A stretch of DNA of 13,828 nucleotides from Candidatus Jordarchaeales archaeon (GCA_038858525.1 JAWCFL010000025.1:1-13828); one strand, 5' to 3'. Shown: positions 1 through 13,615, counted from the first letter of the stretch. A program made the numbers and translations. The notes: generated by a model from the sequence alone, not told the origin.

Positions 1-102
1 GGTGTTCGGCAGCCTTTCAGCTATCAAGTTCAAGTCTAATCTTTGATTCAGGATGACGGAGGCTACGACGTTTTCAATGTGTATTGATTTTGCCTTCGGC
101 AT
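1..102 (-). CDS. tbp: TATA-box binding protein, 5' part only (34 codons, runs off the window edge; not in the ORF track)
   Basis: Manual translation from ATG at 102 gives MPKAKSIHIENVVASVILNQRLDLNLIAERLPNT, matching the TBP N-terminal repeat signature IENVVAS...LDL. A purine-rich GGGGAGGA lies directly upstream. Confidence 0.9.
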   Translation of the reverse strand, partial: MPKAKSIHIENVVASVILNQRLDLNLIAERLPNT

Positions 103-137
103 TCCTCCCCGCCTCTTCTTATGAGGATTATATATAA

Positions 138-155
138 TATATAAACATTTTTTAT
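138..155 (-). promoter_or_regulatory. Putative BRE/TATA promoter of tbp
   Basis: Minus strand reads TAAAAAATG-TTTATATA (TATA at 145-138), about 35-45 nt upstream of the tbp ATG. Confidence 0.5.
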
Positions 156-449
156 TTTTCTTTTAGGTGGTGCTGATCTTCTCGTTTTGGTTTTGTAGGA
201 GTTTCTGAATCGAGTTGTTTTTATATGTTTTCCTTTTTCATGGACGTTCAGTCCCTCCTTCATGGAATGAAGCGCCAAAATGAAAAATGAAAATGCCCAA
301 TTTGGAGTGTTCACATTATTTCCGAAGATTCAAGCTGATAGAGTGAAAAAAGAACGAAAATCCATGGGTCCCCCGCGACAGTAACTTTTTTTGGATAAAT
401 TTGTCTTCATGGCGCTTTTTGCCTGTGTTTGATACGCTGCTACAACCCC

Positions 450-1652
450 TTATTGAAGCACTTTTTCTATAATTTCTGGGTCTGGTTTTACTTGTATTGG
501 TTTTTCGCATGTTCTTATGGGCGTGTCTGGGTCTTTGAGTCCGTGTCCTGTTGTTATGCAGACTATCCTTTCGTCTTTATCTATGAGTCCTGCATCCAGT
601 ATTTTTGTTAGCCCTGCTATCGATGCTGCTGATGCGGGTTCAACGAATATTCCCTCTGTTCTAGCGAGGAGTTTTTGTGCTTGCAGTATTTGTTCATCTG
701 TTACGGTTTCTGCTGCTCCGTTTGTGTCGTAGATCGCTCTTAGTGCTTTTTCCCAGTTAACTGGTTTTCCTATTCTTATCGCTGTCGCTAGAGTTTCAGG
801 GTTTTCAATAAACGTTACTTCTCTTTTCTTTTTCTTGTACGCATGGGCTATCGGGGCTGCTCCTTCGGCTTGGATGCCGATTAGTCTGGGAGTTTGTTCT
901 ATGAGTCCGAGCTGTTTCCACTCTGTTATCCCTTTATGTATTGCGCTTATGTTTCCGGCGTTTCCGACGGGGAGTATTATCGCGTCGGGTGGCTCTCCTA
1001 GTTGCTCAATAACCTCGTAAGCAATGGTTTTTTGTCCCTCTAAACGGTATGGGTTTAGGCTGTTTAGGATGTAGAGTCCGAGGCGTTTGCTGCTTTGCTC
1101 AACGAGGTTTAGAGCTTGGTCGAAGTTTCCCTCCACGGCGAGGACTATTGCCCCATACATTATTGCTTGGGCGAGTTTTCCTAGGGCGATTTTTCCGGAT
1201 GGAATCATTACGACGCATTTTAGTCCTGCTTTGGCAGCGTAGGCCGCTAGAGATGCCGATGTGTTTCCGGTTGAAGCACAGGCGACTGTTCTGCTGCCGA
1301 GTTCCTTGGCAAGAGATACGCCGACAGTCATTCCTCTATCCTTAAAGCTGCCTGTCGGGTTTTCTCCTTCGTTCTTGATCCAGAGGTTTTTAATTCCAAA
1401 CTTCTCTGCTAGCCTATCACATTTATAGAGGCTGGTTCCACCCTCGTTGAGGGATACCTTCTCCCTTACTTTCGGGAGGAAGTTCTCGTATCTCCAAACC
1501 GAGAACGGCTTCCCTCTCCACGATTCAGGGTTAGGTTCTTCGAAGCGGTACTTCACATCTAGTAGTGCGCCGCATTGGTCGCATGTGTATATTACGGTGT
1601 TCCATGGAAACTTCTTATGGCATCTTATGCATTCAAGCCACATGTTCTCCAC
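450..1652 (-). CDS. thrC: Threonine synthase (PLP-dependent, fold type II)
   Basis: N-terminal CxxC...CxxC; NPTGSFKDRG PLP-lysine motif; CASTGNTSASLAAYAA; PVGNAGN; EPASAAS; TGHGLKD. Start is GTG 1652 or ATG 1643; overlaps the hom stop. Confidence 0.95.
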   Translation of the reverse strand: MENMWLECIRCHKKFPWNTVIYTCDQCGALLDVKYRFEEPNPESWRGKPFSVWRYENFLPKVREKVSLNEGGTSLYKCDRLAEKFGIKNLWIKNEGENPTGSFKDRGMTVGVSLAKELGSRTVACASTGNTSASLAAYAAKAGLKCVVMIPSGKIALGKLAQAIMYGAIVLAVEGNFDQALNLVEQSSKRLGLYILNSLNPYRLEGQKTIAYEVIEQLGEPPDAIILPVGNAGNISAIHKGITEWKQLGLIEQTPRLIGIQAEGAAPIAHAYKKKKREVTFIENPETLATAIRIGKPVNWEKALRAIYDTNGAAETVTDEQILQAQKLLARTEGIFVEPASAASIAGLTKILDAGLIDKDERIVCITTGHGLKDPDTPIRTCEKPIQVKPDPEIIEKVLQ

Positions 1653-2649
1653 TTTTGATTCCTCCTCTCTTTTTTGCTATAGTTATTATGTCTGCTAGTA
1701 TGGCGCTGGCCGTCTCCCTCGGTCCCGCTCCTTTGCCTATGAATGTCAATGGGCCAGATAACTCGGTGTTGAGCGTTATGACGTTAAACGTTCCTCCAAC
1801 CGCTAAGGGTGAATTTTTTGGGACTAATCTTGGAGCTACCTCCATTTTCTCCCCATCAAGATATGCTACGTGCTTTACGAGGTAACCGTCCTCCTCAGCT
1901 AATTCTATCATCTCAGGGGTCACTCTGCTTATCCCCTCTATTTCGACGTCGGAAAGATGCTTATCCATGTTCATTAATCCATTCGCCAGGATTACAAGCT
2001 TGCATGCAGCATCTATTCCTTCGACGTCGTATGTTGGGTCTGCTTCAGCATACCCCATTTCCTGCGCTTCCCTTAGTGCGTCATCAAAAGAAACCTTGTC
2101 CTCGCTCATCCTTGAAAGAATGTAATTTGTTGTTCCGTTAAGTATCCCCTCAACGCATATTATTCTATCATGCCTCAGGAATTCCCTGGCGACTGTAAAT
2201 ATCGGTATGGCTGCTCCAACTGTCGCTTCATAAAGTAAAAAGCACCCCTTTCTTTCAGCCAGCGAGAGGAGACTCTTCATTGAGACAACGAGGGGCCCCT
2301 TGTTGGATGTCACAACGTCCTTTCCTTCTTCAAGCGCTTTTCTTATGAAACTCACACCCGGCTCTCCATTCCTCACGTTGGTGGGGGTCATTTCAACTAC
2401 CACATCGCATGGTAGCTCCTCAATGTGACTTAAAGGGCTTGCCCCCGGAACCCAGCTTTTATGCTGCTCACTTTTTTCGAGAATTTCGCCTAACATAAGC
2501 CCGTTGGAATCAACGAACCCACCATTGCTCTTGAAGATGCCTGTAACGTTAATGCTTAACCCTAATCCTCTAAGCCGATCGATTTTTTCCCACAGAATGC
2601 GGGCTAAGGCTCGCCCAACGTTTCCGAAGCCTATCAGGATAAGGTTCAA
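1633..2649 (-). CDS. hom: Homoserine dehydrogenase
   Basis: GFGNVG Rossmann motif, VVTSNKGP, YEATVGAAIP, GILNGTTNYIL, GYAEADPTYDVEGIDAACK, GAGPRETASA. Start moved from the track's 2730 to TTG 2649, which follows GGAGCTGA at the ACT gene stop. Confidence 0.95.
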   Translation of the reverse strand: MNLILIGFGNVGRALARILWEKIDRLRGLGLSINVTGIFKSNGGFVDSNGLMLGEILEKSEQHKSWVPGASPLSHIEELPCDVVVEMTPTNVRNGEPGVSFIRKALEEGKDVVTSNKGPLVVSMKSLLSLAERKGCFLLYEATVGAAIPIFTVAREFLRHDRIICVEGILNGTTNYILSRMSEDKVSFDDALREAQEMGYAEADPTYDVEGIDAACKLVILANGLMNMDKHLSDVEIEGISRVTPEMIELAEEDGYLVKHVAYLDGEKMEVAPRLVPKNSPLAVGGTFNVITLNTELSGPLTFIGKGAGPRETASAILADIITIAKKRGGIKSGEHVA

Positions 2650-2653
2650 GCTT

Positions 2654-3139
2654 TCAGCTCCAAGCGATGAATAAGTTTTTCTCACCAGCCACCTTCTTGA
2701 GAACCCTAAGAGTGCTTTCCAAAGTTTCACTTGAATCAGCTTCGAGGACGAATTTGACCGTGGAGACGTCCTCTGCGCTCTTTATCCTGGCAACAAGCCT
2801 CCTAACTTTCACTCCCCTCTCCAAAACTCTATCTATGGTATCCTTTATGTTGGTTGCGAAGACATGTCCAACCATGATAACTACCTTTCTATGGAGCTCC
2901 ATGAGCGGCTCTATGCCCGCTACTTGAATACCACTTGCCTCCACAGCATCCCTTATCTTGAAAAGATGATCCAAATCTTTAACGTCGAAAGTTACTGCCA
3001 CCGGAAGCATATTTCCCCTTTTCTCCTCCCTGAGATGGGATATTTCCCTCACATTGCCCCCAAACTCGGCTATGGGCTGCAGAGCCTTCAAGAGTTGCCC
3101 TGGCTCGTCGGCCAAGTTGAACCTCATTTTTACCCTCAA
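2654..3139 (-). CDS. Tandem ACT-domain protein (COG2061-like, putative allosteric subunit of homoserine dehydrogenase)
   Basis: DEPGQLLKAL ACT signature, second repeat GHVFATNIKDTIDRV, position directly upstream of hom, and SD GGAGGAGG before TTG. Confidence 0.8.
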   Translation of the reverse strand: MRVKMRFNLADEPGQLLKALQPIAEFGGNVREISHLREEKRGNMLPVAVTFDVKDLDHLFKIRDAVEASGIQVAGIEPLMELHRKVVIMVGHVFATNIKDTIDRVLERGVKVRRLVARIKSAEDVSTVKFVLEADSSETLESTLRVLKKVAGEKNLFIAWS

Positions 3140-3203
3140 TTTTCCTCCTCCCGCAGCTCAAGGGAATCAACTAGTGGCCTTCCTGGTAAGTTATCAAGAA
3201 AAA

Positions 3204-4607
3204 TCATCCCTTTGAAAGCTTAAATTCATCATGAATAGCCTTCACAGCTTCCCTCAAATCTTTTCTCGAAACCACAAGTGTTATGTTTAGCTCGCTGCTC
3301 CCTTGAGCTATCGCCCTTATGTTTATACTCCTCTTTCCAAGAGCTGAGCACACTCTAGCAGCTATCCCCGGAGTGTTCTTCATTCCCGCACCCACTACGC
3401 TCACTAGTCCGACGTCATCTTCAACGTTTATCTTTATCCAGTGGCTTCCGAAAAAATTAGACCTCCTTATCGCCTCAACTGCCCTGTCCTTATCCGCTGA
3501 ATCTATCACGAGCGTTATGTTGTTCTCGGAAGACGACTGAGATATCATTCTAATGTTAACGTTCTCCTCCCCCATTATGGCGAAAAGCTTGGCGGCTGTT
3601 CCCGGCCTCGAAACCATAGCCTCTCCCTCAACAGTTATCATTGCCACCTTCTCCATTCCCGAGACAGCCTTCACCACGCTCGCCCTTGCCTCCACAATAT
3701 TTGATATGACGGTGCACTCATCTGAGTCCATCCTCCAGAAATTTCTTATCTCGACAGGTACGCTTTTCTTCTCAGCCGGGATCAGGCAAAGGGGGTGAAG
3801 AAGCTTCGCGCCGAAGAAAGCCAGCTCCTTCGCCTCAGCATAGGAAATGTCTCGGATAAGTTTCGCGTCTTCCTCATACTCCGGGTTTGCCGTAAGTAGC
3901 CCGTCGACATCCTTCCAGAGAATAACCTTAACATCGCTTTTCTCATCCTTCAACCCGTAAGCTAGTATAGTTGCGGTAAAGTCGCTTCCCCCCCTTCCAA
4001 GAACCGCGATCTTTCCATCAGCGTTCTTGCAGATGAAACCTGGAACCACAACATGCATCCCCTCTTCAAGTAACGGGATGATTTTCTCCTTAACATTAGC
4101 AGCAGTCTCCTCTAAGAGAGGAAGGCCATTAAGATAACTGTTGAACGTCACTATGACGTCCTCAGCCTCGACAAGCTTTGCTCTAATTCCATTTTCGTTG
4201 AGGAATGATTCAAGTAGTACTCCTGAAAACCTCTCTCCAAACCCCTCTATAAATGCGAGAAGAGAGTCGTTCAATCCTTCAATCCTAACTCTGCCAAGCG
4301 CTTTAGCCAGCTCCTCCCTCATAACTTCTATCTTTTCAATAAATGAGTTTTTCCTCTGCTTCAGCACATCGTTCGCTATTTCAACATGCCGTTTAATGAT
4401 TAATTCTAACTCATCATTAAATTCTTTTTTAGTAGCAAGCTTAGCCATGCTGATGAGCTGATCCGTTACGCCTGAAAGCGCCGACGGAACAAGGACGAGC
4501 TGGCTTTCTCCACCATACTCCCTAATAGCTCTCAAGACTTCTTTAAAGGCACCTGCGTTTTTCAGGCAACTTCCGCCAAACTTCATGACAACCCTACATA
4601 TTCTCAT
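3204..4607 (-). CDS. lysC: Aspartate kinase with two C-terminal ACT domains
   Basis: VMKFGGS, VPSALSGVTD, GERFS, LGRGGSDFTA, KDVDGLLTANP, AKLLHP, ISQSSSENNI and IAQGSSELNI motifs. Confidence 0.95.
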   Translation of the reverse strand: MRICRVVMKFGGSCLKNAGAFKEVLRAIREYGGESQLVLVPSALSGVTDQLISMAKLATKKEFNDELELIIKRHVEIANDVLKQRKNSFIEKIEVMREELAKALGRVRIEGLNDSLLAFIEGFGERFSGVLLESFLNENGIRAKLVEAEDVIVTFNSYLNGLPLLEETAANVKEKIIPLLEEGMHVVVPGFICKNADGKIAVLGRGGSDFTATILAYGLKDEKSDVKVILWKDVDGLLTANPEYEEDAKLIRDISYAEAKELAFFGAKLLHPLCLIPAEKKSVPVEIRNFWRMDSDECTVISNIVEARASVVKAVSGMEKVAMITVEGEAMVSRPGTAAKLFAIMGEENVNIRMISQSSSENNITLVIDSADKDRAVEAIRRSNFFGSHWIKINVEDDVGLVSVVGAGMKNTPGIAARVCSALGKRSINIRAIAQGSSELNITLVVSRKDLREAVKAIHDEFKLSKG

Positions 4608-5157: not shown

Positions 5158-5898
5158 TCAGACCATGAAGCCTACCTCGTTATGAAATGTTTCCCCATCG
5201 ACATTCAACGTCCTCTTAACCTTCCCCCGTCTCTTTGACATGAGCCTGAGCTCCCTCGCTGTAAGTCCCTCCCTGTTCTCAGGAGCAACTAATTCTTCCA
5301 CTACAAACTCATTTGTAATAAGCATGTTCTTGAAGCCCTGAGGGACCAAGCTAATGAAGTCTGGTATAGCTTGCTCGAGAAGTCTTCCCAACGCTTCTCT
5401 TTCAACCACGATCTTTCCCACGCAGAACCTTACCCCCTCTTCTTCCCCCCTGACGTTTACTGTCCAATCGAGCTTGGTCCTGCACTTAACATTCCATCCC
5501 CGAGCGGTCTTGATGCTCAGAAGAAATGTGCACTCGTCAGAATACCTTTCGTAAATCCTCCTCAGTTCGCCTGCCCTAAAGGAAAAGTTCACCTTTACCT
5601 TATAAGAGTCACCCTTCACCTCAGGCTTGCCACCGTAATCCTTAAGCAATTCGGCGCACGGCTTTCCTAGAACAACTCCGCTGACAGCGCACTCCTCGTC
5701 CTCACTCATAAGACTTAGAGCAAACCAGCTGATGAGGTCCTCATACCCAAAATCACCCTTCAATGTCATATTTTTCCCCTTAACTGTGACTTCCAGTCGG
5801 GGACCATCGAAGACCCCAACCGAGTACTTCACGAACCTCCTATGAAGTCCCTCATCTGAAACGCCTTTAACTAATCGGGCTAGCCAATGCAAATGCAT
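5158..5898 (-). CDS. Conserved hypothetical archaeal protein
   Basis: Long ORF with protein-like composition (HRRFVKYSVGVFDGP; C-terminal KRRGKVKRTLNVDG). ATG 5898 preceded by GGTG is preferred over the track's 5928. Confidence 0.7.
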   Translation of the reverse strand: MHLHWLARLVKGVSDEGLHRRFVKYSVGVFDGPRLEVTVKGKNMTLKGDFGYEDLISWFALSLMSEDEECAVSGVVLGKPCAELLKDYGGKPEVKGDSYKVKVNFSFRAGELRRIYERYSDECTFLLSIKTARGWNVKCRTKLDWTVNVRGEEEGVRFCVGKIVVEREALGRLLEQAIPDFISLVPQGFKNMLITNEFVVEELVAPENREGLTARELRLMSKRRGKVKRTLNVDGETFHNEVGFMV

Positions 5899-6011
5899 CA
5901 CCAGAAGAAAGAGAAAAAGATCTGACATTAAAACTCTTCTCCTGAAAAAAGAAGAAAGTATTAATAAAGCATTATGAGAGAAGATTAGTTTAAAGATTAA
6001 AGGAGAGTTTC

Positions 6012-6755
6012 ATGATGGCTGCCAGAAAATATCATCTTGCCGTGGGAGTTCTGGTTTTCGTGGCGTTCGCCATAGCCTTCTACAAGTGGTACTTGGGAAC
6101 TTGGACTATAACCGAAGTGAATGGAAACATTTTCTCGACGCCACGCTCCTTCTCATCAAGGGATGTGGTTTGGTTAACTATCTCTTTCTTCCTCTCTCTA
6201 ACTGGGTCAGAGATCGCGGATTTCGACCACGCGATAACGTGGATGAACCACCGTGACTGGTTAACACACTCAGCAATAATACCTTCAATACCCGCTGTCG
6301 TAGTTCTAGCTGCAACTTTCAGTAGCACGTTCATGCAGGAAGCGCGTTTAGCCCTCTCCCTACTACTGGCAATGGTCCCCCTAGTGCTCGCAGCTGCATC
6401 CCACCTTCTAATTGACCTCTTCCCAAGCGTGCCTATCGAGGAGCTCAGCAAAAAAGGAAAGTACGTAGAACTGGCTGTACGTATGGCTGACAGCGCCATT
6501 AGAGGTATGATCTTGACAGAGTTCGGCAAGAGAATGTCTGGAAGCTACCTGATACATTTCTGGTGGAATATTAAAAAAGAAAAGGGAAAAGAAAGGCGCA
6601 CTTTAAGCGAGAAGAAAACAAAAACTTGGCTTGTGATTAACGGCGTTGTACTAATCGGAGTAGCCTTAGCTCTCCTAGCAAGATACCTTATGCTCGAACT
6701 GTCTTTTCCCATTACCCAACTAGTGTCTATCGTACTAGGCTTTATTACTGGCTGA
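6012..6755 (+). CDS. Membrane-bound metal-dependent hydrolase, YdjM-like
   Basis: Several hydrophobic segments plus the motifs ADFDH, HRDWLTHS and SHLLID; SD AGGAG. Confidence 0.65.
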   Translation: MMAARKYHLAVGVLVFVAFAIAFYKWYLGTWTITEVNGNIFSTPRSFSSRDVVWLTISFFLSLTGSEIADFDHAITWMNHRDWLTHSAIIPSIPAVVVLAATFSSTFMQEARLALSLLLAMVPLVLAAASHLLIDLFPSVPIEELSKKGKYVELAVRMADSAIRGMILTEFGKRMSGSYLIHFWWNIKKEKGKERRTLSEKKTKTWLVINGVVLIGVALALLARYLMLELSFPITQLVSIVLGFITG

Positions 6756-7692
6756 TCTTCTCTCCGCAATTGGGACAAAACTTAGCGTTGGATGGTACCG
6801 GTGAGCCACATTGAGGACAGAATCCCCCTCCACCCGCCATTTTTTGTCCACAGTTACTGCAAAACCGTGCGCCTTGAGAGTTCTGAGCCCCGCATTTCGG
6901 ACAAATAACCACGTTTTGAGGAGTCTGAGTTTGCTGGAGAAGGGGAGGCAAAATAGCTATTCCAGCACCAAAAGCCGCTCCTGAAGACTTACCGAGTGAT
7001 TCCGCCGCCCTCTCAACTGCCTCCAGCGTCCTGGCGCGTTCTCCCGTAACTCTTCCTGTCTGAAGCCAGAAAAGCCTCTCCCTGTACTCCGGCGTCGTAT
7101 CCATTCCCTCGAATTTAAGGTCGACGAGGTCCAGCCCAATTCTCCTAAATGCTTCCCTGATCTTAACCTTAACTTTCATGCTTGTCTCATCTAGTTGCGT
7201 GAAGACCTCCTGTAGTCTAAACGACGCTAGGGCATCTATCATATTCTCCAGTATAAATCCTCTCACAAACTGGTTTACCGCGTCCGTCGTGAACGAATGG
7301 GTGTTTCCAACCACTTCCATAACAAAGATCTTCGGCTCCTCAACCTTGAACCAGAATGTGCCATGAAACTTGAGAGGCGCCAGATCAACAGTTTGACCTT
7401 GCCCTCCAAACTTGCCTTGAAACTGTGATGTTGAAACGAACATTATCTCGGCGGCGAAAGCCGACTTGTCCAGCAATTGAAGACGCCTTATAACACCAGT
7501 GAGCAACGGAAGATTAGCTGTTGTTAAATGATGCCTACCTGGGCCAAATACATCATAAGCCTTACCATCTCTGAAAAATACTGCCACCTGATTCTCTCTA
7601 ACTATGAGGTTCGAGCCCCACTCGATCCTGTCATCATGGTACCTCCAAACTATTTCTTCCCGTCCGCCTTTCCACTCTATAACCTTAGGCAT
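6745..7692 (-). CDS. SPFH/Band-7 domain protein with C-terminal zinc ribbons (YdjI/COG4260-like)
   Basis: LIVRENQVAVFFRDGK, FGPGRHHLTTANLPLL and AEIMFVS N-terminus; four CxxC pairs (CPKC/CSNC/CPQC/CPNC) at the C-terminus. Confidence 0.9.
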   Translation of the reverse strand: MPKVIEWKGGREEIVWRYHDDRIEWGSNLIVRENQVAVFFRDGKAYDVFGPGRHHLTTANLPLLTGVIRRLQLLDKSAFAAEIMFVSTSQFQGKFGGQGQTVDLAPLKFHGTFWFKVEEPKIFVMEVVGNTHSFTTDAVNQFVRGFILENMIDALASFRLQEVFTQLDETSMKVKVKIREAFRRIGLDLVDLKFEGMDTTPEYRERLFWLQTGRVTGERARTLEAVERAAESLGKSSGAAFGAGIAILPPLLQQTQTPQNVVICPKCGAQNSQGARFCSNCGQKMAGGGGFCPQCGSPVPSNAKFCPNCGEKISQ

Positions 7693-7702
7693 ACTACCAC
7701 CC

Positions 7703-8298
7703 TCATCTAAACTCTAACATATACTCCTTTCTCTCATTAAACTTTTTATCAATATCATCTAGAACCCGCCTTAACCTGAACACGTCCTGATAAACATCCT
7801 TCAAATTGCCCTTCTCCATTCTCTCCTTAAGCTCAAGTATCCCTCTGCGAAACGCCTCAACATCCTCAAGTATCCCCATATCAAACTCGTAAAGCCTATC
7901 AAGCTCTTTTTCCCTAACCTTTACGGCATCAAAAAATCCAGAGTAACCATAGTCCGCATGATTTATCCTCTCAGAAACTCTGTCAAGCAACGCCATAAGC
8001 CTGTCCATCTGCTCCCAGCTTTCACGAAGATCATAGTCGACAAGCATCTCCTGGATCAAGCTCAAATCAGACTTACACTCCTTCATCCTCGTATAAATGA
8101 AACCTCTAAGAGCCTTATCCGTCTCCCTTCTAATCTCCTTAGCCTTGTATCCATGTTGGCCAGCCCGGCAAAAGCTCAGAGCTTATAGCCAGGAACAAGG
8201 TACATCAACTTTTCCAACAAGTTCCTCTTGCTCTGAAAGGAAACCTCTCTCTTAATCTTACCCCCAACATCCTCATTTTCCTTCTTCCACAAAGACAA
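7703..8298 (-). CDS. Intron-split conserved helical hypothetical protein: join(8298-8185, 8155-7703), 188 aa after splicing
   Basis: SD GGAGGTGA (8310-8303), then TTG 8298. Exon 1 is MSLWKKENEDVGGKIKREVSFQSKRNLLEKLMYLVPGY (38 codons). Exon 2 continues HGYKAKEIRRETDKALRGFIYTR into the 127-aa track ORF, which contains ADYGYSGFFD. The stop lies 10 nt before the SPFH start. Confidence 0.85.
8156..8184 (-). other. Candidate 29-nt BHB-type mRNA intron
   Basis: Sequence AAGCUCUGAGCUUUUGCCGGGCUGGCCAA. Central helix GGCU/GGCC, bulges AUA and AAC, intron helix AGCUC/GGGCU, and about 10 bp of exon-exon pairing. The cuts predicted by the BHB rule restore the frame. Confidence 0.85.
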
Positions 8299-8340
8299 AG
8301 AGTCACCTCCAAGATTGACACTAAAAATTAATGCAAAACA

Positions 8341-8362
8341 AGGATAAAAAATTTATAGTAAA
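8341..8362. promoter_or_regulatory. AT-rich BRE/TATA element between the divergent tRNA-Val and the intron-split gene
   Basis: Plus strand GATAAAAAA-TTTATAGT about 27 nt before tRNA position 1; the minus strand of the same stretch reads CTATAAATT. Confidence 0.55.
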
Positions 8363-8385
8363 GGCATAAATCTAGAGTCTAACAA

Positions 8386-8477
8386 GGGCGGGTAGTCTAG
8401 CGGTCATGACGCCACACCAAAACTGGGCGACGCTTACGACGTGGAGGACCCAGGTTCAAATCCTGGCCCGCCCACCA
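8386..8477 (+). tRNA. tRNA-Val(UAC) with encoded CCA and a 16-nt non-canonical intron
   Basis: Acceptor GGGCGGG/CCCGCCC-A-CCA; D arm GTCT...TGAC; T arm CCAGG-TTCAAAT-CCTGG. Removing 16 nt gives anticodon arm CCACG-CTTACGA-CGTGG with anticodon TAC. Confidence 0.95.
8416..8431 (+). other. tRNA intron at position 30/31 with a relaxed BHB motif
   Basis: Intron ACCAAAACTGGGCGAC. Central helix CGCC (8410-8413)/GGCG (8426-8429), bulges ACA and ACG. The flanking helices are weak. Confidence 0.85.
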
Positions 8478-8505
8478 ACCACGATCATCTTTTAAAACGC
8501 ACCAA

Positions 8506-8933: not shown

Positions 8934-9668
8934 TCACGCTTCACTGAATAATTTCTTTAACCTCTCTAACTCAGCGAGCATAGCACTTCTTAACTCAGTG
9001 ATCGATGACGTTTCAGAGGAAAATGCAACTCCAGGAGCAGATGCGGAAACTGCCGCCGCTGGCGGTGCTGCTGGCAGTGCCCTTGCCGCTGGAGGTGCTG
9101 CTGGAGGTGCTGCTGGAGGTGCTGCTGGAGGCGCTGCTGGGGGTGCCCTTGCCGCTGGAGGTGCTGCTGGAGGTGCTGCTGGAGGTGCTGCTGGAGGCGC
9201 TGCTGGAGGCGCTGCTGGAGGCGCTGCTGGGGGTGCCCTTGCCGCTGGAGGCGCTGCTGGAGGCGCCGCTGGAGGCGCCGCTGGGGGTGCCCTTGCCGCT
9301 GGAGGCGCCGCTGGGGGTGCCCTTGCCGCTGGAGGCGCCGCTGGAGGCGCTGTTGGAGGCGCCCTTGCCTCTATTGATAATGGCGTTTCAGTTCGGGATG
9401 CGCCTATGAATACATCGAATACCTCTTCTGGCTCTTTTTGGGCGAGTGCTTCTATTTCTGGTGCTGATATTACTATTTCTTCTTCCTCTATTAGTGGTAC
9501 TTCAGCGCTTTTAGCTAGTTTTTCTACTTCTTTTTGTATCTTCTTAATTGAAGTGATGTATGAGTCGTGTATTTTCTGGAAATTGGCGAAGTACTTCTCC
9601 GATGTGCTTACAAGTGATTTGCACAGGTTTAGTACGGCTTTAAGGACTTTTTCTTCTTTTTTAGGCAA
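8934..9668 (-). CDS. Hypothetical protein: helical N-terminus, acidic linker, long (APPA)n Pro/Ala tract, C-terminal amphipathic helix ending LKKLF
   Basis: TTG start with SD GAGGGG. Non-repetitive ends read as real protein, with C-terminus ITELRSAMLAELERLKKLFSEA. Confidence 0.8.
   Translation of the reverse strand: MPKKEEKVLKAVLNLCKSLVSTSEKYFANFQKIHDSYITSIKKIQKEVEKLAKSAEVPLIEEEEIVISAPEIEALAQKEPEEVFDVFIGASRTETPLSIEARAPPTAPPAAPPAARAPPAAPPAARAPPAAPPAAPPAAPPAARAPPAAPPAAPPAAPPAAPPAAPPAAPPAARAPPAAPPAAPPAAPPAAPPAARALPAAPPAAAVSASAPGVAFSSETSSITELRSAMLAELERLKKLFSEA
9052..9369 (-). repeat. Intragenic GC-rich tandem repeat: 12-nt units (PPAA) interspersed with 18-nt units (PPAARA)
   Basis: About 22 PP doublets; exact 60-nt duplication 9081-9140 = 9147-9206. 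Confidence 0.95.
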
Positions 9669-9917
9669 AGTCGTCCCCTCAACCTACTCCTTATTTTTTA
9701 ACTTTTACTTAAAGGTTGCTTTTCAACGTGTTATTCAGATATTTTTAATGTTGTTTTTTATATATGAACTTTATCGCAAATTTTTTTGTTCACTTAACTG
9801 CAAGGTGCCTTTTGCTCCCTTTTATGTATGTTTTACATGTCCTCCCTTACTTATTTCGTTCTTGTTAGTATCTGCGATAGATGGTTCATTAGCAGTTACC
9901 GTGTTTTTTGTGGAGCG

Positions 9918-10886
9918 TTAAGTGCTGAGCATTATTACTAGTATAGCCATGTACGAGGCGTGGGCGGCTATTGTTGTTATTATCCTGTATTCTCTTGCTT
10001 GGAGTAATGCTCCTAATATTAGGGATAATATAATGTACGTAGGGAGAGCTAGCAGTACGCTTATTAATCCTACCTCTGGCAAACCTATGGTAGATGCGTT
10101 CTGCGGGTATAGGATCACGTGGAGTATAGAGAATATTATTGCTGTCGCTACTAATCCCTTCCACCGTCCCCAGCTTTTTTCTAGTCCCTGCTGTAGGAAT
10201 CCTCTCGTGGCTATTTCTTCGCATGGTGCTACTAGTAGCGTAACTGAAGCTATGAGGAGAAAGAGCTGAGCAGGGTTGGTTGCTCCGAAGGGAGCGTTTA
10301 TCTCTGATATGAATTCCTCAGCGAGAAGGATGAGTAGTGGGCCCAGAAGCGGGCCGTAGAATGCTTGAAGCACGGCTAGCAGAGCTAGGGTAGTAACGAT
10401 ACTTGTTATGTTAGCTGTCACCATCATACCTATTCCCGCTAGGCATCCGATTATCACATCCATTACTGTGTTTCTCTTATTCGTAGATGGGAATCCTAGT
10501 TCTCTAAGAGAGGCCTTCTTCAGTTTGAGGATGAGCACTGGAATTATCAAGAGTGCTAGCTCCCCTAGTGTTACGAATGATAATATTTCGGGCGTCACTA
10601 TTACCAACACTAATTCGAATTTGTATGTCATAGTGAATATGTCAAAGGTGGATTGTAGCCTCAAAAGGGAGAGAGGGCTTATAGCTAGCATTAACGCAAG
10701 TCCTAAGAGGTACATTACACTCTGAAAAAGGAAAAGAAGGATTATTGATGCCGTGAAGCCTACAGTTGCCTCAATCCACCCCCAAGAAACCCTAGCGCCA
10801 TCCATTCTGCTACCACAATACGCGCACCTTTTTCCTTTGTCTTCGGGCTGTTCAGCCCCACACGTCGGGCAAAATCGTCTCTCCAT
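9918..10886 (-). CDS. CPBP (Abi/CAAX protease) family intramembrane protease with an N-terminal zinc ribbon
   Basis: CPTC...CAYC at the N-terminus, multiple TM segments, and CPBP motifs CEEIATRG, IFSILH and AAHASYM. Confidence 0.85.
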   Translation of the reverse strand: MERRFCPTCGAEQPEDKGKRCAYCGSRMDGARVSWGWIEATVGFTASIILLFLFQSVMYLLGLALMLAISPLSLLRLQSTFDIFTMTYKFELVLVIVTPEILSFVTLGELALLIIPVLILKLKKASLRELGFPSTNKRNTVMDVIIGCLAGIGMMVTANITSIVTTLALLAVLQAFYGPLLGPLLILLAEEFISEINAPFGATNPAQLFLLIASVTLLVAPCEEIATRGFLQQGLEKSWGRWKGLVATAIIFSILHVILYPQNASTIGLPEVGLISVLLALPTYIILSLILGALLQAREYRIITTIAAHASYMAILVIMLST

Positions 10887-10907
10887 TTTTCCTTGCTTCC
10901 CCCTTCA

Positions 10908-12668
10908 TCAATTCTTTACAACTTTGACTATTTTTTGCGCTATTACATCCACAAGCCCCTTCTCGGTTATTTTCAGGAAAGGTATTACTGGTAGACTTAT
11001 AAATGACAGCGTCATGAATGGATCGTGCAAAGTGCACCCAAGCCCTCTGACAGCTTCAAGTATCCCCCGCCTTTTCTCGATTACAACGTTCGCGTCCTCT
11101 GCACTCATCAACCCAGCTACCTCCAGTGGAAGTGACGCTAATACTTTTCCTTTATCAGCTACAACCATGCCTCCCTGCATTCTCACAATCTCTCTGGCGG
11201 CTAAAGCCATATCAATACGGCTAGCTCCCACCACAACCAAGTTATGTGAGTCATGAGCTACCGTTGAAGCAAGGCTACCCGAGGATATGCCGAAACCTCT
11301 AACAAAGCCTAACCCCACCTCCCCAGTCCCCTTATGCCTCTCTAGGACAGCAACTTGGAGTACATCGTCAGCTGGGTTAGGCTCAACCACTCCACCTATA
11401 ACCTTCAGCTCAGCTTCCTCCTCACGAGTAACGATGCTTCTCTCCTTAACCCCTATCACTCTCACGACAGCGCTGCTCCTATCATGCCTGACAGCGAAAA
11501 GCTCCGGCTCTATTTTTTGGGTCACGCGCACCCTCCCCCTCACCTTATCCGAGTAGCTGAACCGATTAAGCTCAACGATCAATTTCCTCCCATCAGCCAC
11601 CATCACTCCTCTCGCGAACACTTTTTCAACCGTAACTTTTTCAAGGTCTCTGATGACAGCTATATCCGCTCTTCTGCCCGGCGCCAACCCGCCGAGAACC
11701 ATATCAACTCCCAGATAAGTCGCGGGATTCAGCGTCGCCATCTGGTAAGCCTTAACGGGATCAACTCCCTCCTCAATGCTCATCCTGATGAGCAAGTCTA
11801 CATGTCTCTCCACGAGTTCCTCGGGGCTTATGTCGTCGCAGGCCAAAAGACAATTCCTCGTGTCAAGCCCAAGCCTCACAATTGGTCTAAGTAGCTCTGA
11901 AAGGTTCTTTGAGGCAGTTCCCTCCCTCAACATAAGAAACATCCCTCTCCTAAGCTTCTCAACCCCCTCCTCACCCGACACGCTTTCATGATCAGACCTC
12001 ACACCCGCAGCAATGTAGGCGCAGAGCTCTCTGCCGGAAAGCCCGGGACAGTGCCCATCGATAACCCTCATTTCCCTACTAGCTTTAAGCTTAGCAACAA
12101 CGCTTGGATCGAGACCGAGCACTCCTGGGAAGTTCATCATCTCAGCCAGTCCCACAATTCCCTCCTCACCCTTTAGCCTCTCAATATCTTCCACGTCTAT
12201 TCTTCCTCCAGCCTCTCCGAGCTTAGGATCAGACGCTGGAACACAACTTGGAATAACCACAAAGAAGTTCACGGGTAGTCCCCTAACTTCCCGGAGAAAC
12301 TCGATCAAACCATCAACACCAGTGACGTTCGCTATTTCGTGAGGATCCCAAACCACGCTGGTAGTGCCGTGCGGAAGGCACAGCCGAGCGAACTCCGTCG
12401 GGGTAATCTGGCTACTTTCAACATGAATGTGCGCATCGAAAAACCCTGGGGAAAGATACATTCCACTTACGTCTAAGACCTTGGTATTCGCCCCCACATG
12501 TCCCTTCACGTCACCAACGCAAACTATGGTATCGTCCTTAACAGCGACATCAGCCTTCTCTATTTCCCCAGTAAAAACATTGATGATTTCCCCACCCGAG
12601 AAAACAACGTCCGCCTTTAATTCTCCCAAAGCCGCCCTAATAACATCCTCTAACCGCACATTTACCAC
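10908..12668 (-). CDS. ade: Adenine deaminase (AdeC type, amidohydrolase superfamily)
   Basis: PGFFDAHIHVESS, DPHEIANV, EMMNFPGV, DGHCPG, SDHE, REGT, CDD, AHDSHN and PFMTLSFISLPVIP motifs. Start is GTG 12668 or GTG 12659. Confidence 0.92.
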   Translation of the reverse strand: MVNVRLEDVIRAALGELKADVVFSGGEIINVFTGEIEKADVAVKDDTIVCVGDVKGHVGANTKVLDVSGMYLSPGFFDAHIHVESSQITPTEFARLCLPHGTTSVVWDPHEIANVTGVDGLIEFLREVRGLPVNFFVVIPSCVPASDPKLGEAGGRIDVEDIERLKGEEGIVGLAEMMNFPGVLGLDPSVVAKLKASREMRVIDGHCPGLSGRELCAYIAAGVRSDHESVSGEEGVEKLRRGMFLMLREGTASKNLSELLRPIVRLGLDTRNCLLACDDISPEELVERHVDLLIRMSIEEGVDPVKAYQMATLNPATYLGVDMVLGGLAPGRRADIAVIRDLEKVTVEKVFARGVMVADGRKLIVELNRFSYSDKVRGRVRVTQKIEPELFAVRHDRSSAVVRVIGVKERSIVTREEEAELKVIGGVVEPNPADDVLQVAVLERHKGTGEVGLGFVRGFGISSGSLASTVAHDSHNLVVVGASRIDMALAAREIVRMQGGMVVADKGKVLASLPLEVAGLMSAEDANVVIEKRRGILEAVRGLGCTLHDPFMTLSFISLPVIPFLKITEKGLVDVIAQKIVKVVKN

Positions 12669-13615
12669 CCCGAAGAGTATGGTCCAGCAAGAAACGCGAG
12701 AATGCCGAAGAAAGCCCCGATCTTATCTAGGAGGCTAGCCTTGCTCTGAGCCTTGCGGGACGAGTACCTTGCGAGAATTAGAATGGCTGAAGCTCCTACA
12801 ACCACGACTCCCGGAAAATAGAATGGGTAGAACCAGAAGCCGAGGGTTCTAACCCACCATACCCCCAATCCATCTATGACTGGGCAAAGCGTGAAGCACA
12901 CGATCCCGGCCAAGTTAAACGCCGCGCCAGCATATGAGGCAGTCCTCAACCCGTAAACCCTAGCTATTGTCCTTGCATCCCTGAGCGTGTCGCCCTCAAC
13001 ATCCTCCATTACTTTTATTATTTCCCTTCCCTGCAGAACGCAGAACGCTGTAAGGAAGAAGAGGACAACCATAAGTGGGAGAGAGAACAATCCGAAGTCG
13101 CTTGACACGACGAGTGAGCCATAAATGTACCCGAAAGCAAAACTGAAGGAGACTACGAAGTTCCCGAGCAAGCCTAAAACTTTAACTTTCGCCGCATAAA
13201 GTAGACCGACGGTTGAAAAGATAACAGCTAAAATCCCGGACGGAATGCTTATCAGAAAAGCAAGCGCACAACCTGTACTCCACAGAACCCCTGCCAGCAC
13301 CTTAGCTTCTTTGACGCTCATGGCTCCTCGGGGAAGAGGCCTGTTAGGCTTATTAACCCTATCAACTTCCACGTCGTATATGTCGTTCACGACGTTCCCG
13401 GCGGCTGCTATAAGAACGTAAACGAAGTAAGCGAGAACTCCAATTTCCCAGAATCTGCTGGGAAAAACCCAGAATCTAGGCCAAAGCCAGTTCAAGAAGA
13501 GAAGCCCATAAAAAACCTTCGCAACTTGAAGAGAAGAAAGAACAGTTAATCCGCCCATAAGACAGTTATGTGGACGCGTAATTTCTAAGTAAGCCCTCAG
13601 ATCCATAACTACCAC
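12662..13615 (-). CDS. UbiA prenyltransferase, probable digeranylgeranylglyceryl phosphate (DGGGP) synthase
   Basis: YLEITRPHN; GNVVNDIYDVEVDRVNKPNRPLPRG; GREIIKVMEDVEGD; multiple TM helices. Start is GTG 13615 or ATG 13606. Confidence 0.8.
   Translation of the reverse strand: MVVMDLRAYLEITRPHNCLMGGLTVLSSLQVAKVFYGLLFLNWLWPRFWVFPSRFWEIGVLAYFVYVLIAAAGNVVNDIYDVEVDRVNKPNRPLPRGAMSVKEAKVLAGVLWSTGCALAFLISIPSGILAVIFSTVGLLYAAKVKVLGLLGNFVVSFSFAFGYIYGSLVVSSDFGLFSLPLMVVLFFLTAFCVLQGREIIKVMEDVEGDTLRDARTIARVYGLRTASYAGAAFNLAGIVCFTLCPVIDGLGVWWVRTLGFWFYPFYFPGVVVVGASAILILARYSSRKAQSKASLLDKIGAFFGILAFLAGPYSSGW

Follow-up and report, generated by a model that had tools for sequence, protein, structure and literature searches.

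The window analysed in this work is the whole of a contig of 13,828 nucleotides from a Candidatus Jordarchaeales archaeon (GCA_038858525.1, JAWCFL010000025.1:1-13828; contig C25, 13.8 kb), which belongs to a genome of 2.09 Mb that is 92.7% complete. On its minus strand, at 8934..9668, it encodes a 244-residue protein made up of a helical head, an acidic linker, a long Ala/Pro arm and a conserved terminal helix, hereafter the tail. With moderate confidence, this protein is considered here to represent the soluble form of a tether spread across the Asgard archaea, in which an anchor and an arm would present a docking helix to a partner. The tail is a helix that recurs at the C-terminus of Asgard proteins of several architectures.

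Architecture and coding sequence

The translation agrees exactly with that of a preliminary description made from the sequence alone, and the layout proposed there (helical head, acidic linker, proline-rich tract and conserved C-terminal helix) was borne out by translation, by composition and by an AlphaFold2 (AF2) model (m60418257a01f) built on an alignment of 11 orthologues. The head, residues 1-54, is basic and helical, and residues 3-54 (9507..9662, minus strand) form a single long helix, modelled with predicted local distance difference test (pLDDT) values of 86-94 and bearing a hydrophobic seam of 3/4 spacing; this N-terminal helix is probably an element for coiled-coil pairing or anchoring. 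Its acidic continuation (residues 55-101; 9366..9506, minus strand), as defined by composition, contains 13 D/E versus 2 K/R and was modelled with low confidence, short helices being predicted at residues 71-75 and 80-89. The latter stretch holds a short conserved motif, PEEVFDVFIG (residues 80-89; 9402..9431, minus strand), situated directly before the arm. Equivalents occur at the same position in relatives, namely DLWSVLMG (family f3), TLFSLLSG (f9), LLFNMLSG (f28) and, in the polytopic type, AVFDSALGE; when the soluble and polytopic types were compared with hhalign, this stretch alone was aligned, and not significantly.

The arm (residues 102-206; 9051..9365, minus strand) consists of APPA units with periodic Arg, and is encoded by a 12-nucleotide tandem array located by Tandem Repeats Finder (TRF) at 9058-9369. 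Its length, given beforehand as about 105 residues, is indeed 105, comprising 52 Ala, 45 Pro, 6 Arg, 1 Leu and 1 Thr, and AF2 predicts it to be disordered. APPA repeats resemble the Ala/Pro-rich semi-rigid spacers of other proteins. Beyond the arm, the protein ends in the helix SITELRSAMLAELERLKKLFSEA (residues 222-244; 8937..9005, minus strand), delimited by AF2, by conservation and by a profile of the tail. The tail, ELRSAMLAELERLKKLF, falls within an AF2 helix covering residues 222-243 (pLDDT 77-89), modelled as a single unbroken element of 22 residues whose hydrophobic seam is formed by I223, L226, M230, L234, L237 and F241. Pfam scans of the whole protein, the head and the tail returned sub-threshold noise alone, as which the matches to LytTR (17.5 bits) and DUF7944 were rejected, and searches of Protein Data Bank (PDB) sequences with the tail and with its profile gave nothing significant.

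With the head as query, orthologues were found in all three genomes of the same genus and in all six of the sister family, while no match was obtained in 30 other genomes of the phylum; one orthologous locus lies on the complete chromosome CP147778.1. These orthologues are 164-244 residues long, and the difference resides almost wholly in the arm, which is APPA-based in one Jordarchaeia family and APPSAG-based in the other. Head residues invariant within Jordarchaeia include K4, E5, E6, K7, L9, C16, S18, L19, S23, K25 and Y26, plus others; outside the head, invariance is displayed by P80, V83, F84 and F87 of the motif preceding the arm, and by 16 of the 22 tail positions.

Orthologues and codon comparison support a complete coding sequence of 244 codons at 8934..9668 (minus strand), with a TTG start at 9666-9668 and its stop at 8934-8936. 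This TTG is the sole in-frame start, the next one being codon 230, and an in-frame stop is found five codons 5' of it. A Shine-Dalgarno-like GAGGGG, read from the sequence, precedes the TTG by six bases (9675..9680, minus strand), and the TTG start is kept in 10/10 Jordarchaeia orthologues, with GAGGGG or GAAGGG at the equivalent site. Relative to a congener, head codons comprise 36 identical, 19 synonymous and 3 non-synonymous ones, and those of the tail 12 identical, 11 synonymous and no non-synonymous ones. Within the genus, the tail shows 9-11 synonymous changes and again no non-synonymous change, and its 20-codon core shows 4-6 identical, 9-11 synonymous and 5 non-synonymous codons when compared with the sister family. 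The codon comparison shows that the tail is under purifying selection; this is a real gene, and the minus strand is its coding strand.

The tail across the Asgard archaea

A query of 34 residues from the tail produced weak, family-consistent matches across the phylum, all of them at the extreme C-terminus of open reading frames (ORFs) and behind Pro-rich tracts. A profile (A2) built from 13 tails of three architectures, and used at a threshold of E<=1e-3, scores the protein at 68.7 bits and matches 297/400 Asgard genomes, 73/90 high-quality genomes and 69/85 genera, the tail being in this way conserved across most of the phylum. In a control archaeal phylum, that of a metagenome-assembled genome (MAG) labelled Thermoproteota, it matched none of 301 genomes, a contrast that places the tail far beyond chance. 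As far as searched, the family appears confined to Asgard archaea, its homologues sitting in an actin-bearing lineage. Within the genome under study, regular-expression and profile searches of the six-frame translation found a single tail-bearing ORF and no second one.

Among 1.84 billion representative proteins, the profile recovered 72 clusters, and in nearly all of them the start of the motif lies 19-24 residues before the C-terminal end. According to a simple hydropathy count, 28 of these clusters have a single transmembrane (TM) segment, 16 are polytopic (~9-10 TM), 14 lack TM segments and 13 are fragments. Comparison of the heads of the architectures with hhalign gave probabilities of 0.2% and 17%, the homology not being significant; at the level of sequence, the tail is the element common to proteins whose heads lack demonstrable homology. 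The soluble architecture is also seen in other families, two complete genomes of 4.4 and 6.0 Mb among them, with the same succession of long helix, short hydrophobic motif, Pro-rich arm and tail, the last exemplified by GLGGLREEMLKELDRLKKIMRG.

Across the three architectures the residues S..L...M..EL.RL are invariant, and the pattern shared more widely is S-I-x-x-L-R-x-x-M-L-x-E-L-x-R-L-[KR]-x-[LFIV]-[FM]. The conserved residues gather on one half of the helix, where a hydrophobic stripe of I, L, M, L, L and F has invariant R, E, R and K on its flanks; the opposite face is variable. Such one-sided conservation, hydrophobic as well as charged, reads as the pattern of a helix lying in the groove of a partner.

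Variants exist in which the tail is repeated or internal. P0014 has three N-terminal copies of the helix, and P0046 combines a Ras-family GTPase domain (E 5.5e-10), two tail copies placed around a PPPPP stretch and a Cys-rich domain; the same type of domain accompanies two or three tail copies in P0057, P0067 and P0075, and P0076 contains one internal copy. Tandem copies in P0014, P0046, P0057 and P0075 are spaced by ~20-50 residues. There are hints that the tail helix is used in small-GTPase circuits as well. A Pfam scan of 59 tail-bearing representatives recognised one Ras/Roc domain, one weak CdvA-like coil and no more. In several multi-copy relatives, the Cys-rich (CxxC...CCxC) domain is followed by an apparent domain of the longin/Roadblock type.

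The proposed tether and its candidate partner

In the tether proposed here, the N-terminal helix of ~52 residues would pair into a coiled coil, acting as anchor or multimeriser, and the semi-rigid Ala/Pro arm would provide a spacer of roughly 100 residues and of variable length. The near-invariant, amphipathic end helix of 22 residues would then be the docking peptide for a partner conserved throughout the Asgard archaea, and PEEVFDVFIG may give a second contact before the arm. Because elsewhere the module of arm and helix hangs on single-pass or ~10-pass membrane anchors, the family would in general serve to keep a cytosolic partner, on a long leash, in a fixed place. Considering that (i) conservation of the helix is one-sided, (ii) it extends throughout the phylum, (iii) the anchors carrying it are unrelated, (iv) it occupies the free end of a flexible arm, and (v) self-association is already attended to by a separate helix of 52 residues, the tail would be better understood as a docking peptide, and we infer that its partner is non-self. 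By analogy with arcadin-2 and with helices of the WH2 type, the hydrophobic groove of actin is the leading candidate for such a partner.

The nearest studied parallel is arcadin-2. This crenactin regulator of Pyrobaculum calidifontis (PDB 5LY3) consists of a core, an unstructured and non-conserved linker and a small conserved C-terminal helix, which binds the hydrophobic groove of crenactin with a dissociation constant of 31 nM; the protein depolymerises filaments, and its C-terminal helix alone carries the activity by docking into the groove of its partner (PMC5173319). The likeness seen to the protein described here is one of architecture; the tail profile had no match among the 301 control genomes, which may or may not include Pyrobaculum. 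There are further differences: the linker is here a long Ala/Pro repeat and the head a single long helix, and while the gene for arcadin-2 sits in the arcade cluster beside crenactin, the present gene is unlinked to actin.

The genome does encode an actin (466 bits with the profile for eukaryotic Actin), together with gelsolin-domain ORFs, ESCRT-III and, on contig C21, a Vps4 with an MIT domain, in agreement with the Asgard setting supposed in the preliminary description. Several observations nonetheless weigh against the proposed docking function and its candidate partner. The actin gene is on another contig (C32, 12338-13447, versus C25) and lies ~0.5 Mb away in a complete Freyarchaeia genome, and no actin, gelsolin or ESCRT gene was found beside 27 loci of the family. 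Genes adjoining family members code, among others, for a CPBP protease, a KH-domain ATPase of PilT-like type and subunit D of the V-ATPase. Actin is present in 372/400 genomes of the phylum, and its co-occurrence with the tail is uninformative because it is near-universal; moreover, families f31 and f17, in which the tail was undetected, still have actin. The seam of the tail is also heptad-like, the end of the GCN4 zipper being its sole faint look-alike in the PDB, and the proteins with two or three tandem copies could equally well be composed of self-packing helices.

Alternative readings of the tail

These last features would also fit a tail that is a short coiled coil, homotypic or heterotypic, of the VASP-tetramerisation or zipper kind, joining tail proteins into loops or networks, a reading that we consider rather unlikely. 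In its favour stand the seam formed by I223, L226, M230, L234, L237 and F241, the two or three tandem copies of P0014, P0046, P0057 and P0075, which could form intramolecular bundles, and the best PDB likeness of the tail profile, which is limited to the C-terminal heptad of GCN4, EVARLKKLVGE, resembled by the tail end ELERLKKLF. This match is, however, insignificant (E 0.09-0.4), and the tail differs from the zipper in having ~three heptads, conserved polar residues in its seam and a leash of 100 residues. A coil of three heptads in which Arg takes a core position would be weak, and a simple zipper would not usually show specific charged residues that are near-invariant throughout the phylum and on anchors unrelated to each other. 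Besides, the one tail-bearing protein of this genome already possesses the 52-residue helix for self-association, and the tail gives no match to VASP_tetra (Pfam, E<=10). A short oligomerisation coil like the VASP tetramerisation helix had been regarded in the preliminary description as an equally good reading.

It is unlikely that the protein is a true actin-assembly factor of the WH2 or Ena/VASP type, with the tail in the cleft between subdomains 1 and 3 of G-actin, the arm recruiting profilin-actin and the coil multimerising. The overall layout does recall WAVE/VASP, and that of the WH2 proteins (PF02205: WASP/WAVE/WIP, thymosin-beta4) is approached in having a Pro-rich region, an amphipathic helix of the form R-x-A-[LM]-L-x-x-[LI] and then L-K-K, since the tail reads R-x-A-M-L-x-E-L followed by LKKL. 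With Ena/VASP (EVH1, Pro-rich, EVH2, PF08776) it shares a multimerising coil, a Pro-rich middle, short conserved helices and a multivalent design. In addition, the family is restricted to actin-bearing Asgard archaea, its members with 2-3 tandem copies recall the tandem-WH2 nucleators, one of them being fused to a Ras-like GTPase, and the groove of actin can, as arcadin-2 demonstrates, be used by a terminal helix in archaea.

On the contrary, the WH2 reading of the tail offered in the preliminary description fails every sequence test applied (profile, motif and conservation). No match to WH2 was obtained at E<=10 with the whole protein, with its last 39 residues or with the 13 tails of the three architectures, and the PDB search with the tail profile recovered no WH2-bearing chain. 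The WH2-like signature consists of Leu, two basic residues and then Thr or Val (PMC9433394), and the corresponding expression, L[KR][KRH][TV], was found in 0/25 sequences. LKKL had been likened to the LKK(T/V) motif, but the fourth residue of the family is L, F, I or V, the LKKL of this protein being LKKF, LREI or LKDV in relatives; as the triplet turns into LRE or LKD in the wider relatives, LKK is not what selection keeps. The spacer of two residues noticed beforehand is confirmed, E-R alone separating L234 from L237, versus ~5 residues in WH2, and the AF2 helix runs continuously over residues 222-243, unlike the short helix plus extended LKKT strand of WH2. Given that the faint likeness of the tail is to the end of the GCN4 zipper, LKKL is no more WH2-like than zipper-like. 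As for Ena/VASP, no Pfam match to EVH1 or VASP_tetra (PF08776) was obtained at E<=10, the coil is N-terminal and no proline run exceeds two residues. The preliminary description is in this way upheld as far as architecture and lineage are concerned, but not as to membership of the WH2 or VASP families, and a role in actin regulation would be putative; no linkage of the gene to actin speaks for it here either.

Composition of the arm bears on the same question. No proline run is longer than two residues, either here or in any of the Jordarchaeia orthologues examined, none of which displays polyproline stretches of the profilin-binding Ena/VASP type, and for this reason recruitment of profilin by this protein is doubtful. 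Heimdall and Thor profilins do bind polyproline weakly, which would favour an assembly factor, but their ligands are of the PPPAPPLP type (PMC8410842). Other members of the family contain PPPPP runs and, given these, may recruit profilin. The Pfam profilin model found no profilin in this genome, and none in the control genomes either, being insensitive to Asgard profilins, so that the missing match is no evidence of absence; the best candidate, a Roadblock/LC7 protein, was rejected.

A further reading, which we hold to be very unlikely, would have the tail resemble MIT-interacting motif 1 (MIM1) and the arm MIM2, recruiting the MIT domain of Vps4 or other ESCRT parts. The consensus of MIM1 is (D/E)xxLxxRLxxL(K/R), and in ESCRT-III it lies, like the tail, in a C-terminal amphipathic helix with R-L-x-x-L behind a flexible region. 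Potential partners are available, since the genome encodes the Vps4 with its MIT domain, a second MIT protein and ESCRT-III; MIM1 helices end Asgard ESCRT-III proteins, thaumarchaeal CdvA has a Pro-rich MIM2 (PMC8970359), and one tail-bearing relative has the weak CdvA-like coiled-coil match. Nevertheless, the consensus is out of register in the tail and matches 0/25 sequences, this protein lacks the MIM2 core, which was seen in 2 relatives only, the single PTAP of the protein is not conserved, and the C-terminus of the genome's own ESCRT-III looks different.

Finally, the codon pattern practically refutes the idea that the ORF is spurious and driven by the repeat, or that the true gene is on the opposite strand. 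In favour of this idea, tandem repeats rich in GC give rise to long ORFs in both strands, and the exact 244-residue product is absent from a collection of 15 billion proteins in which three neighbouring proteins are present. Against it, conservation of head and tail, which lie outside the repeat, extends down to 44% identity with mostly synonymous change, the ESM Atlas contains the protein letter for letter, and variants of the antisense ORF are likewise absent from the 15-billion-protein collection. That antisense ORF (8998..9921, plus strand), Gly/Ala-rich and 307 residues long, is a by-product of the GC-rich repeat that extends into the AT-rich intergenic region, and it is taken as an artefact and no gene because the pattern of conservation fits the minus-strand frame.

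Gene neighbourhood

Upstream of the gene and on the same strand lies that of a membrane protein with a zinc ribbon and an Rce1-like/CPBP domain (9918..10886, minus strand; PF02517, E 2.9e-12). It is the sole neighbour kept in both Jordarchaeia families, at a gap of ~190-250 bp, and the adjacency was seen in genomes G002, G006 and G007. That it might be a split-off polytopic anchor was considered and rejected, as comparison with the membrane domain found in polytopic members of the family revealed no similarity. It opens a block at 9918-13615 (minus strand), conserved in both families upstream of the gene, which continues with an adenine deaminase (10908-12668, minus strand) and a UbiA-family prenyltransferase (12662-13615, minus strand).

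Among the relatives, a PilT/T2SSE-like ATPase with a KH domain adjoins the tail gene in 9/9 loci of family f5 (loci L031, L038-L048, L064, L066) and in 6/7 of family f21 (L032, L035, L037, L047, L061, L063, L065). Because of this common neighbour, the single-pass and ~10-pass forms may be positional orthologues with different anchors. Other neighbours of family members are subunit D of the V-ATPase, a ribose-5-phosphate-isomerase-like gene and a protein of 495 residues. Beside the ESCRT-III gene of the genome under study (locus L003, G000:C54), two ORFs (43-1308, plus strand, and 2343-3461, minus strand) each end in a short EEYL-type helix behind a Pro-rich or charged stretch; these helices have a SHOCT-like look and differ from the tail motif. 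In the MAG labelled Thermoproteota, a contig of 1315 nucleotides (L054, JAPDJV010000023.1) codes for residues 1-53 of the protein at 79% identity, and is probably a mis-binned contig from Jordarchaeia.

On the other side of the gene, a stretch of ~1.9 kb (6745-8480) is missing at the same position in the congener G002 (locus L017), where ~300 bp separate the orthologue of the gene described here from that of the gene at 6012-6755. It contains an SPFH/Band-7 protein ending in two zinc ribbons (6745-7692, minus strand), an ORF of 127 residues (7703-8086, minus strand) and a tRNA gene, beside which it may represent an insertion. The tRNA in question (8386-8477, plus strand) has 92 nucleotides and scores 52.7 bits in Rfam over 89 nucleotides against a model of 71 positions; ARAGORN labels it Phe with anticodon AAA, which is implausible; probably, an archaeal tRNA with an intron was here read in bacterial mode.

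Further along, a threonine-pathway cluster at 450-4607 (minus strand), of identical gene order in the congener, comprises a threonine-synthase-like enzyme dependent on pyridoxal phosphate (450-1652), a homoserine dehydrogenase (1633-2730), a small ACT-domain protein (2654-3139) and an aspartate kinase with two ACT domains (3204-4607), all of them on the minus strand. Between this cluster and the ~1.9-kb stretch, two divergent ORFs of 256 residues (5158-5928, minus strand) and 247 residues (6012-6755, plus strand) have no Pfam match, and are 64-70% identical to their counterparts in the congener.

Significance for Asgard cell organisation

Searches of the literature combining Asgard with WH2, or with proline-rich and actin, gave no description of the tail family, which is essentially undescribed and has no Pfam domain. 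Published Asgard work reports WH2-like motifs internal to gelsolins (LRRV, LKHV, LVDV and LKDV; motif signature in PMC9433394) and contains general remarks that polyproline motifs occur in Asgard genomes (PMC8410842). In a preprint on co-immunoprecipitation with Lokiactin, an Arf GTPase, profilin and gelsolins were enriched, and a bias against membrane proteins was noted.

Asgard archaea have actin, profilins and gelsolins, while to our knowledge no formin, Arp2/3 activator, Ena/VASP protein or membrane-actin linker is known in them. That the end helix, perhaps together with the hydrophobic motif upstream of the arm, binds the groove of Asgard actin, the family being an archaeal counterpart of WH2, VASP and membrane-linker proteins, is a tentative proposal to which we give a fairly low probability. 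Should it hold, soluble dimers such as those of the protein described here would collect actin or deliver it, relatives with single-pass or polytopic anchors would attach filaments to the membrane, relatives with tandem copies and a fused Ras-like GTPase would put the system under GTPase control, and a system for the assembly and anchoring of actin would predate eukaryogenesis.

Even with a partner other than actin, a docking motif shared by the whole phylum would offer a handle for finding that partner, and experiments in cultured relatives may be possible, as soluble orthologues occur in the complete genomes of 4.4 and 6.0 Mb. Whatever the partner, a near-universal Asgard family, mostly anchored in the membrane and carrying a nearly unchanging helix on a long arm, is a concrete, testable candidate for a component still lacking from the picture of how Asgard cells are organised.

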